Shown: positions 36,311-36,819 of the stretch, piece by piece
Position numbering within the stretch: the stretch's first letter is position 1
Layout: the number at the start of each line of letters is the position of its first letter
DNA from: a virus
Lineage: Duplodnaviria > Heunggongvirae > Uroviricota > Caudoviricetes
Strand: one strand, 5' to 3'
IMG/VR virus record: IMGVR_UViG_2874920711_000003
Length of the DNA stretch: 36,999 bases
Notes under the pieces: generated by a model
Databases searched by the model: none
Told to the model about the DNA's origin: nothing
What the model saw: the letters and a program-made list of their open reading frames with translations, nothing else
Made by a program: the position numbers and the translations under genes

Positions 36311-36339
36311 CAGATAAAATAAACCCGCCGAAGCGGGTT
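36311..36339 (-). terminator. intrinsic terminator downstream of hok
   Basis: Minus-strand reading AACCCGCTTCGGCGGGTTTATTTTATCTG: GC stem, TTCG loop, T-rich tail. Confidence 0.5.
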
Positions 36340-36407
36340 AAGTGCGGGTGCATTGAGGATGCCTGACACATCAGAGGTGGCGAGGGATTTCTCCCTCGCC
36401 GGGTCTC

Positions 36408-36563
36408 TTACTCCTCAGGTTCGTAAACTGTGAAGACAGCGACCTCCGTCTGGCCGGTTCGGATTCGTACCTCGCAGAGGTCTTTCCTCGTTACCAGTGC
36501 CGTCACTATGACGGTTAAACAGATGACGATCAGGGCGATTAACATCGCCTTTTGCTGCTTCAT
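36408..36563 (-). CDS. hok: Hok-family type I toxin (51 aa)
   Basis: MKQQKAMLIALIVICLTVIVTALVTRKDLCEVRIRTGQTEVAVFTVYEPEE, hand-translated; matches the Hok/Gef consensus as recalled. RBS AAGGAGAAG upstream. Confidence 0.85.
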   Translation of the reverse strand: MKQQKAMLIALIVICLTVIVTALVTRKDLCEVRIRTGQTEVAVFTVYEPEE

Positions 36564-36819
36564 AGCCTGCTTCTCCTTGACCTTTCGGTCCGTAAGAGGC
36601 TAATCTCTATGTGTCGCATAGATATGGCCTCAGATTAATGTTAAACGTCTTGCAGGACGCGTAATGTTACCTGGGGCTTTTCTCTATCTGCCGTTGGTGT
36701 TCATGCCCGAGGCAGATAGCCTCAAGCACCCGCAGTCATTCTACTTAACTAAGATTTCCCGCAAACCGTTTTTGTCCAGCACAATAAATATCCAACTAAA
36801 CCAATGGAGTTCGCTGTAT

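Follow-up and report, generated by a model that had tools for sequence, protein, structure and literature searches.

In the hok/mok/sok (parB) system of plasmid R1, the first 19 codons of the mok reading frame lie upstream of hok, and a GAGG Shine-Dalgarno (SD) motif (G105/A106) precedes the mok ATG (116-118) by 8 nt, the same motif and spacing as in the locus described here (PMC9841398). Mutations of the mok ATG and SD abolish Hok, stop codons upstream of the hok start kill Hok expression, and translation of mok past the hok start is unnecessary; it is thus the translation of mok that matters and not the Mok product (PMC9841398). The hokW-sokW pair of prophage Sp5 is an experimentally shown type I toxin-antitoxin system, in which the toxicity of a Hok 92% identical to that of the present locus is neutralised by Sok with the assistance of RNase III and Hfq, and in which mutations of the sokW -10 box abolish the antitoxin activity and unleash toxicity (PMC8621323). 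HokW is only 44% identical to the Hok of R1, and sokW has been described only as complementary to the 5' UTR (PMC8621323). Overexpression of HokD has been shown to be toxic, and the chromosomal hokA, hokB and hokC loci tested earlier mediated no post-segregational killing (bioRxiv 10.1101/2025.08.07.668861). The hokD locus of K-12 is described in the literature as rearranged and without canonical toxin-antitoxin components. A recent (2025-26) survey of Hok states that mok was left unanalysed (bioRxiv 10.1101/2025.08.07.668861).

The window, i.e. the whole 36,999-nt stretch of Caudoviricetes DNA that was analysed (IMG/VR record IMGVR_UViG_2874920711_000003), carries a related locus on its minus strand (Table 1). 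Its sequence elements, homology, predicted folds, covariation and allele frequencies are observed directly, and the locus is very probably an intact hok/mok/sok type I toxin-antitoxin cassette of the hokD/hokW type in a lambdoid E. coli prophage. The 51-aa product, which a first-pass annotation had taken for a member of the Hok family, does match Pfam HOK_GEF (PF01848) with 78.6 bits (E-value 2.6e-22, cut-off 22). It is the A46V allele of HokD, which differs from the K-12-type HokD at one of 51 residues (V46 for A46) and is annotated as hokD in RefSeq genomes (WP_000813256.1). The Hok subfamily and HokA models of NCBIfam match it only under their strict cut-offs (45.1 vs 73), and a Pfam DUF6232 match of 17.8 bits was discounted, the cut-off of that model being 27.4. 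As a separate observation, the Tyr47 codon of Hok is UAC and reads UACG with the next base (window 36422-36425, minus strand); UACG is the A-to-I editing motif of TadA, and TACGAA is invariant at this place in 47 of 47 aligned loci.

Table 1. Features of the hok locus, in window coordinates
Feature	Position	Strand	Remarks
hok CDS	36563..36408	minus	51 aa Hok/Gef membrane toxin, MKQQKAMLIALIVICLTVIVTALVTRKDLCEVRIRTGQTEVAVFTVYEPEE
Short mok leader ORF	36560..36619	minus	19 codons, MRHIEISLLRTERSRRSRL + TGA; homologous to annotated mokW / mok start
hok (mok-hok) mRNA, full-length	36316..36731	minus	~416 nt; putative ends, from RF01794 position 1 and the terminator
Putative hok promoter -10 box	36738..36743	minus	TAGAAT; inferred, 6 nt upstream of G36731 start
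tac (translational activator element)	36720..36731	minus	GGGUGCUUGAGG; pairs with fbi (full-length fold) or ucb (truncated fold)
ucb (anti-SD box)	36669..36677	minus	GCCCCAGGU; pairs with SD-mok in full-length fold
mok Shine-Dalgarno (SD-mok)	36628..36631	minus	GAGG; 8 nt before mok ATG
dcb (downstream complementary box)	36596..36600	minus	GCCUC; pairs with SD-mok (GAGGC) in 3'-truncated fold
hok Shine-Dalgarno (SD-hok)	36573..36578	minus	AAGGAG; complement overlaps Sok -35 box
Stem-loop	36379..36400	minus	GGCGAGGGA-GAAA-UCCCUCGCC; in both predicted folds
fbi (fold-back inhibition element)	36346..36358	minus	CCUCAAUGCACCC; tac complement, one bulged U
Intrinsic terminator of hok mRNA	36322..36339	minus	7-bp stem and T-tract
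Putative Sok promoter	36577..36606	plus	-35 TTGACC 36577-36582, 18-nt spacer, -10 TAATCT 36601-36606
Sok antisense RNA (predicted)	36613..36681	plus	~69 nt; annotated SokW ends transferred from VT2-Sakai

The Rfam family RF01794, named 'sok', matches the window at 36731..36561 over its full-length model (1-157) with 100.8 bits against a gathering score of 59. The match lies on the hok-sense strand with its 3' end on the hok AUG, and what it identifies is therefore the leader; as built, RF01794 models the hok leader rather than the antisense RNA, and a match to it gives neither the strand nor the ends of Sok. A permissive Rfam search over 36200-36999 added only sub-threshold chance matches (ceN48, rsmX and Phe_leader) and a misplaced plus-strand 'sok' match of 15 bits, and Sok is not delimited by Rfam. 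The Rfam check that had been proposed for the locus thus returned the leader well above threshold, and the proposed fold-back is supported by covariation across 47 relatives, as discussed below. Neither of the two outcomes that were to speak against the annotation was found, as Hok passes its family HMM and a Sok-like RNA is found by homology.

The upper boundary of 36660 that the first-pass annotation gave to the locus has to be moved outward by ~80 nt, as the hok mRNA probably starts at about 36731, downstream of a -10 box at 36743-36738. The hok promoter is weak and its -35 region poor (GTTTGC/TTTGCG at ~36760-36766), and a TATAAT-like box is seen at the same place as the -10 box in the hokC-like, Photorhabdus and Erwinia rows of the 47-sequence alignment. 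A scan for consensus sigma-70 promoters flagged no site on either strand, leaving out both the hok -10 and the Sok -10, and the two promoters are therefore called from positional homology rather than from their match to the consensus. The 416-nt mRNA (36731-36316) is predicted to fold with a minimum free energy of -170.1 kcal/mol (z = -7.4 vs shuffles) and with its 5' and 3' ends paired, the fold containing the tac/fbi helix (12 bp predicted) and the ucb/SD-mok pairing. Upon removal of the 3' 56 nt, the minimum free energy fold changes to tac/ucb and SD-mok/dcb, in which tac pairs with AAGCCCC (36679-36673), the 5' part of ucb. The tac/ucb and SD-mok/dcb pairing is that of the open form of R1 (PMC9841398). 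The stem-loop at 36379..36400 is expected to form the 3' end of the hok mRNA in its processed, active state and to protect it there, a role assigned to it by analogy with R1 (PMC9841398).

The folds were checked against 47 aligned, non-redundant relatives, which come from Escherichia, Kluyvera, Citrobacter, Photorhabdus, Pantoea, Erwinia and other genera. In the closed-form helices 88.7% of the alignment cells are paired, as compared with 34-46% when the partners are slid; 24 pairs are changed on both sides, and none of 500 shuffles reaches the observed covariation score. The tac-fbi helix is paired in 90.7% of cells, and at tac U4 and its fbi A partner the pair is U-A in 33 sequences and C-G in 10. 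The ucb/SD-mok hairpin likewise covaries (A-U/G-C and G-C/A-U changes), and the stem-loop at 36379..36400 is ~98% paired with G-C/A-U and A-U/G-C double changes. Covariation is uninformative for the open-form helices tac/ucb and SD-mok/dcb because these are almost invariant; the SD-mok/dcb helix, for example, is 99.6% paired yet almost without change. Within SD-mok, G105, A106 and G108 are invariant in this alignment and G107 is at least 90% conserved, and the AAGGAG columns of SD-hok are invariant or nearly so.

The first-pass annotation had placed Sok on the plus strand around 36590-36660. The strand agrees with the homology to sokW, whereas the interval is shifted, the promoter being placed at 36577-36606 and the RNA, with the ends of SokW transferred, at 36613-36681. 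These ends come from GenBank AP000422, where sokW is annotated as a misc_RNA of 71 nt in antisense with its 5' end 9 nt into mokW; in the 47-sequence alignment the two ends in VT2-Sakai (740 and 670 of L002) align to window positions 36613 and 36681. The 5' end of SokW falls on G36613, 6 nt past TAATCT, and the U-tract at the other end possibly extends to ~36686. The Sok -10 box agrees with TATAAT at three of six positions, and the promoter call rests on its positional homology to the sokW promoter. The 74 nt of 36613-36686 fold into a free 5' tail, a long hairpin and a U-tract (UUUUCU) at -25 kcal/mol (z = -3.3), and the 5' tail is complementary to the mok start region and covers the mok start codon. 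We also note that the apex of the Sok or ucb-SD hairpin holds 16-20 extra nt (window 36641-36660, ACGCGUCCUGCAAGACG) that neither the Rfam consensus nor the hokC-like, Photorhabdus and Erwinia loci have; this insertion, which brings Sok to ~69-71 nt, is carried by the hokD/hokW clade, a Kluyvera locus (L107) and a locus of an unclassified Enterobacteriaceae (L106).

An upstream ORF of about 19 codons whose TGA overlaps the hok ATG, and which resembled mok while being shorter than that of R1, had also been proposed, and both descriptions agree with what we find. The ATG lies at 36619-36617, the TGA at 36562-36560 and the hok ATG at 36563-36561, the latter two overlapping as ATGA. The start is homologous to that of mokW, mokC and R1 mok, lies 8 nt after the GAGG SD and is the sole start codon upstream of hok in any frame of the window. 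About 40% of random ATGs would be open for 19 codons, (61/64)^19, and the length alone means little; it is the conservation that exceeds chance. The ORF has 19 codons because a net length difference of 1 nt shifts its frame to end at the hok ATG-A: with respect to hokW, 2 nt are missing after the mok ATG and 1 nt is gained in the hairpin that follows, giving a spacing of 56 nt. Longer mok frames were rejected: the one in frame with hok is closed by a TAG 39 nt before hok, the R1-like one by a TAG at -46, and neither has a start codon past that point. The window therefore has neither the hokW/mokC-type architecture, in which mok begins 57 nt upstream in frame with hok and shares its stop, nor the R1-type architecture of a ~70-codon mok overlapping hok in a different frame. 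The 19 codons cross the hok SD and reach the hok initiation region, and by analogy with R1 the short ORF probably works like mok without the R1 architecture.

We extracted the leader from 127 loci that the Hok protein had located in IMG/VR and GTDB genomes; together with the window and four annotated loci, these gave 112 distinct loci. Among these, whose proportions are biased as the sampling favoured the closest Hok relatives, the mok ATG is at -57 and in frame with hok (70 codons) in 88, at -56 with 19 codons ending at ATGA in 14, and at -55 or -58 with a long overlapping frame, as in R1, in six; the remaining four, three K-12-type rearranged loci and one Photorhabdus tandem copy, have no mok ATG. 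An ATG is thus present 55-58 nt upstream of hok in 108 of the 112 distinct loci, with a GAGG-type SD upstream of it in 107 of those, and this pair is conserved in Escherichia, Kluyvera, Citrobacter, Photorhabdus, Pantoea and Erwinia loci. Since hok begins with ATG-AAG or ATG-AAA in every locus of the set, any mok in the -56 frame must stop at ATGA. The -56 form is seen in three clades, viz., that of the window, the hokC-like loci of E. ruysiae and E. whittamii, and Erwinia/Kalamiella, and since the indels are at different positions in the three, it arose independently in each. The exact 85-nt short-mok allele is found at 99% identity or more in 777 E. coli records; it is therefore common, and no isolated lesion. 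Between close relatives, the peptides read from the three frames are unrelated (MRHIEISLLRTERSRRSRL, MLNTCRLASYVPKGKEKQA-Hok and MRHIEISLLRAERQGEAGYE...), and the frame shifts would be tolerated because the Mok peptide is probably irrelevant. The short mok is one of three naturally interchangeable frames of one leader ORF and, to judge from the sequence comparison, a variant in frame of the known mok leader that is common in nature; it would constitute a natural termination-reinitiation version of mok-hok coupling that has arisen at least three times.

Column entropy among the 21 closest relatives is ~0.1 or less over most of the hok CDS and rises to ~0.2-0.35 only in its last ~25 nt. Within the leader the entropy peaks at 36604-36627, an interval that takes in the spacer between SD and ATG as well as the first mok codons and that the 5' tail of Sok targets; it is also high in the loop of the tac hairpin. 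The mok start region is the most variable stretch of the locus. We hold it to be an even bet that the mok frame is evolutionarily free and has been switched repeatedly by small indels, many of them in this region, driven by the diversification of Sok specificity among co-resident copies. In the E. coli genome CP178302 the co-resident copies L086, L087 and L094 read TCTCACAA, CCAGACAC and CTTTGCAC, respectively, at the first mok codons.

Several side observations concern the distribution of related copies. Genomes may hold three to four hokD/hokW-type copies, such as L086, L087, L094 and L120 in E. coli CP178302 and L089, L091 and L095 in Shigella flexneri CP182556, and the mok-start and Sok-tail regions differ between co-resident copies; L120 has decayed, having lost its start codon and suffered a frameshift. 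On Photorhabdus contigs hok occurs in tandem, the copies lying a few hundred nt from each other, at 301-462 and 701-853 in P. khanii (L121) and at 701 and 1331 in P. temperata (L113); one copy has a 3-aa transmembrane insertion and one is without a mok leader. Lastly, E. coli-type hok sequences, 93-100% identical, are seen on very short contigs of assemblies from unrelated taxa, namely Acinetobacter idrijaensis (L100, 275 nt), Xanthomonas pisi (L105, 431 nt) and a Candidatus Scatousia MAG (L131); these look like contamination and not like the real distribution.

The transcription start sites, the 3' processing, the translational coupling and the toxicity of this locus can be proposed from R1 and hokW-sokW, on which each step of the following mechanism is modelled. 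The weak promoter would give a stable mRNA of ~416 nt with its 5' tac paired to the 3' fbi and its mok SD sequestered by ucb, so that the full-length RNA would be neither translated nor bound by Sok. Slow trimming from the 3' end would remove fbi, upon which tac would pair with ucb and the mok SD would pass into the weaker SD/dcb hairpin. Ribosomes initiating at the mok AUG (36619) would then pass over the hok SD in the course of 19 codons and stop at the UGA within AUGA; this termination would open or hand over the hok start, and Hok would be made only when mok is translated. The unstable 69-nt Sok, transcribed in antisense from inside the leader, would pair through its 5' tail with the mok start region, block the translation of mok and hence of hok, and trigger cleavage of the duplex; Hok would be produced once Sok is no longer replenished.

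The short leader might be read differently, as the mark of a decaying, non-functional copy in which the 1-nt difference behind the 19-codon mok is a lesion that inactivates the locus. Decay is certainly seen in the family: L120 is a truly decayed copy (start lost, frameshift), several hok loci of K-12 are disrupted, tests of chromosomal hok loci from K-12, E. coli C and ECOR24 showed no post-segregational killing, and 88 of the 112 relatives retain an in-frame mok. However, all RNA elements and the Hok ORF are intact in the window, the hok CDS is almost invariant among relatives (entropy ~0.1 or less), the allele is conserved at 99% or more in 777 E. coli records, and the same arrangement arose in three unrelated clades. 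Moreover, a stop in R1 mok after the hok SD or start leaves Hok unimpaired (PMC9841398). We thus consider a decaying copy improbable.

That the 19-codon ORF is there by chance, with Hok translated from its own AAGGAG SD and Sok acting only via mRNA decay, appears to us more doubtful still and is very improbable. Although ~40% of ATGs open 19 codons by chance, hok does have a good SD of its own, and the hokW study has sokW only as complementary to the 5' UTR (PMC8621323), the ATG and its GAGG-type SD are conserved across Escherichia, Kluyvera, Citrobacter, Photorhabdus, Pantoea and Erwinia, the 5' tail of Sok lies exactly on the mok start codon, and in R1 the loss of either mok element abolishes Hok (PMC9841398). 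There is next to no likelihood that the short Mok peptide is functional itself, e.g. as a small regulatory or membrane peptide, a reading that can draw on nothing direct beyond an ORF of conserved length with its own SD. It runs against the unrelated peptides encoded by the three frames in close relatives, the first mok codons being the most variable part of the locus, and the finding in R1 that the translation of mok counts and not its product (PMC9841398). An intact cassette with a short but working mok leader is therefore the reading that we retain.

A 551-nt query spanning the locus matches 4722 of 5426 complete E. coli genomes with a median of two copies per genome, the best matches being 99.8-100% identical and annotated as hokD. 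In near-identical genomes hok has Cro/CI-like and replication-region genes on one side and, on the other, the genes for DUF968, RusA and the Q antiterminator, two tRNA genes, and genes for lysis and morphogenesis, all in the orientation of hok. To judge from these neighbours, the cassette occupies the early-right region of a lambdoid, Rac-like E. coli prophage, with the replication genes to one side of it and RusA/Q to the other. The ORFs flanking it in the window (36820-36999 and 35671-36060) have no Pfam or NCBIfam match. The former is a very hydrophobic ORF of 59 aa (MKNALQFLFVAFWLFVSCMPIIF..., minus strand) at the end of the window, just upstream of the hok promoter, and RefSeq has a frameshifted hypothetical pseudogene at its position. 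Two prophage tRNA genes on the minus strand (33071-33144 and 33247-33319) lie just downstream of the Q antiterminator gene, and near-identical genomes annotate these as tRNA-Ile and tRNA-Arg. Elsewhere in the window, Rfam matches on the minus strand at 32223-32412 and 2214-2412 are to the sRNA STnc100 (106 bits) and to full-length IS009 (221 bits).

As hok is co-oriented with the Cro-to-Q early-right transcription unit (L001, L132), read-through upon induction would cross hok in the sense direction and meet the Sok promoter head-on, and could collide with Sok transcription. Such a collision might explain the RecA-dependent loss of SokW, which has been reported for Sp5 and left unexplained (PMC8621323).

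The cassette as such is already known: it is a member of the best-studied family of type I toxin-antitoxin systems, occurs in most E. coli genomes and carries the annotation hokD. The only mildly new element is the natural three-way variation of the mok frame, including the common 19-codon allele; the searchable literature yielded no description of the short-mok allele and no survey of mok frames, though a prior description is possible. This variation independently supports the conclusion from mutagenesis that mok translation is needed only up to the hok initiation region. The RefSeq name hokD covers both the intact prophage form and the leaderless relBE-hokD remnant of K-12, which hides whether the regulatory RNA parts are there, and in the RefSeq records inspected only the toxin CDS is annotated, with neither mok nor Sok.

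Among the characterised systems, the closest to the window locus is hokW-sokW of the Stx2 prophage Sp5 / VT2-Sakai / 933W, with 91.6% nucleotide identity over ~415 nt, a 51-aa Hok that is 92% identical, the same leader architecture and position of Sok, and a similar residence in a lambdoid prophage. The two differ in that mokW is annotated in frame with hokW from 57 nt upstream, with a shared stop and 70 codons as against 19, as is also the mok of Rac-SA53 (57 nt before hok, in frame, shared stop, 70 codons), and in that SokW has 71 nt and the Sok of the window 69. R1 shares tac, ucb, SD-mok, dcb, fbi and the 19 mok codons before hok with the window, but its mok, offset by 58 nt (ATG 116-118, hok 174-176), runs for 70 codons across hok in another frame, and the R1 system is borne on a plasmid while the window locus is in a prophage. 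The hokC/mokC (gef) locus belongs to the same family and has the same leader, with ~65% nucleotide identity over the locus and 80% Hok identity. It differs in its mokC, a 69-codon in-frame extension of hokC (L099), in its chromosomal, non-prophage site, and in a Sok hairpin that is without the apical insertion, which in the window amounts to ~16 extra nt compared to the Rfam consensus; the hokC-like loci of E. ruysiae and E. whittamii (L097, L098) show the 19-codon ATGA form independently. Comparison with hokD, which had been proposed at the outset, shows that the hokD (relF) of the Qin prophage of K-12 shares the RefSeq name HokD and all but one of 51 Hok residues with the window, whereas K-12-type loci (H130-H133) are homologous only from 36577 (hok SD) downstream, and two of the K-12 type (L066, L088) have unrelated sequence upstream and no mok ATG. 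Thus, in place of the K-12 arrangement of a hok just downstream of relBE with no mok/sok leader, the window has prophage ORFs as the upstream neighbours and carries hok behind a full leader.
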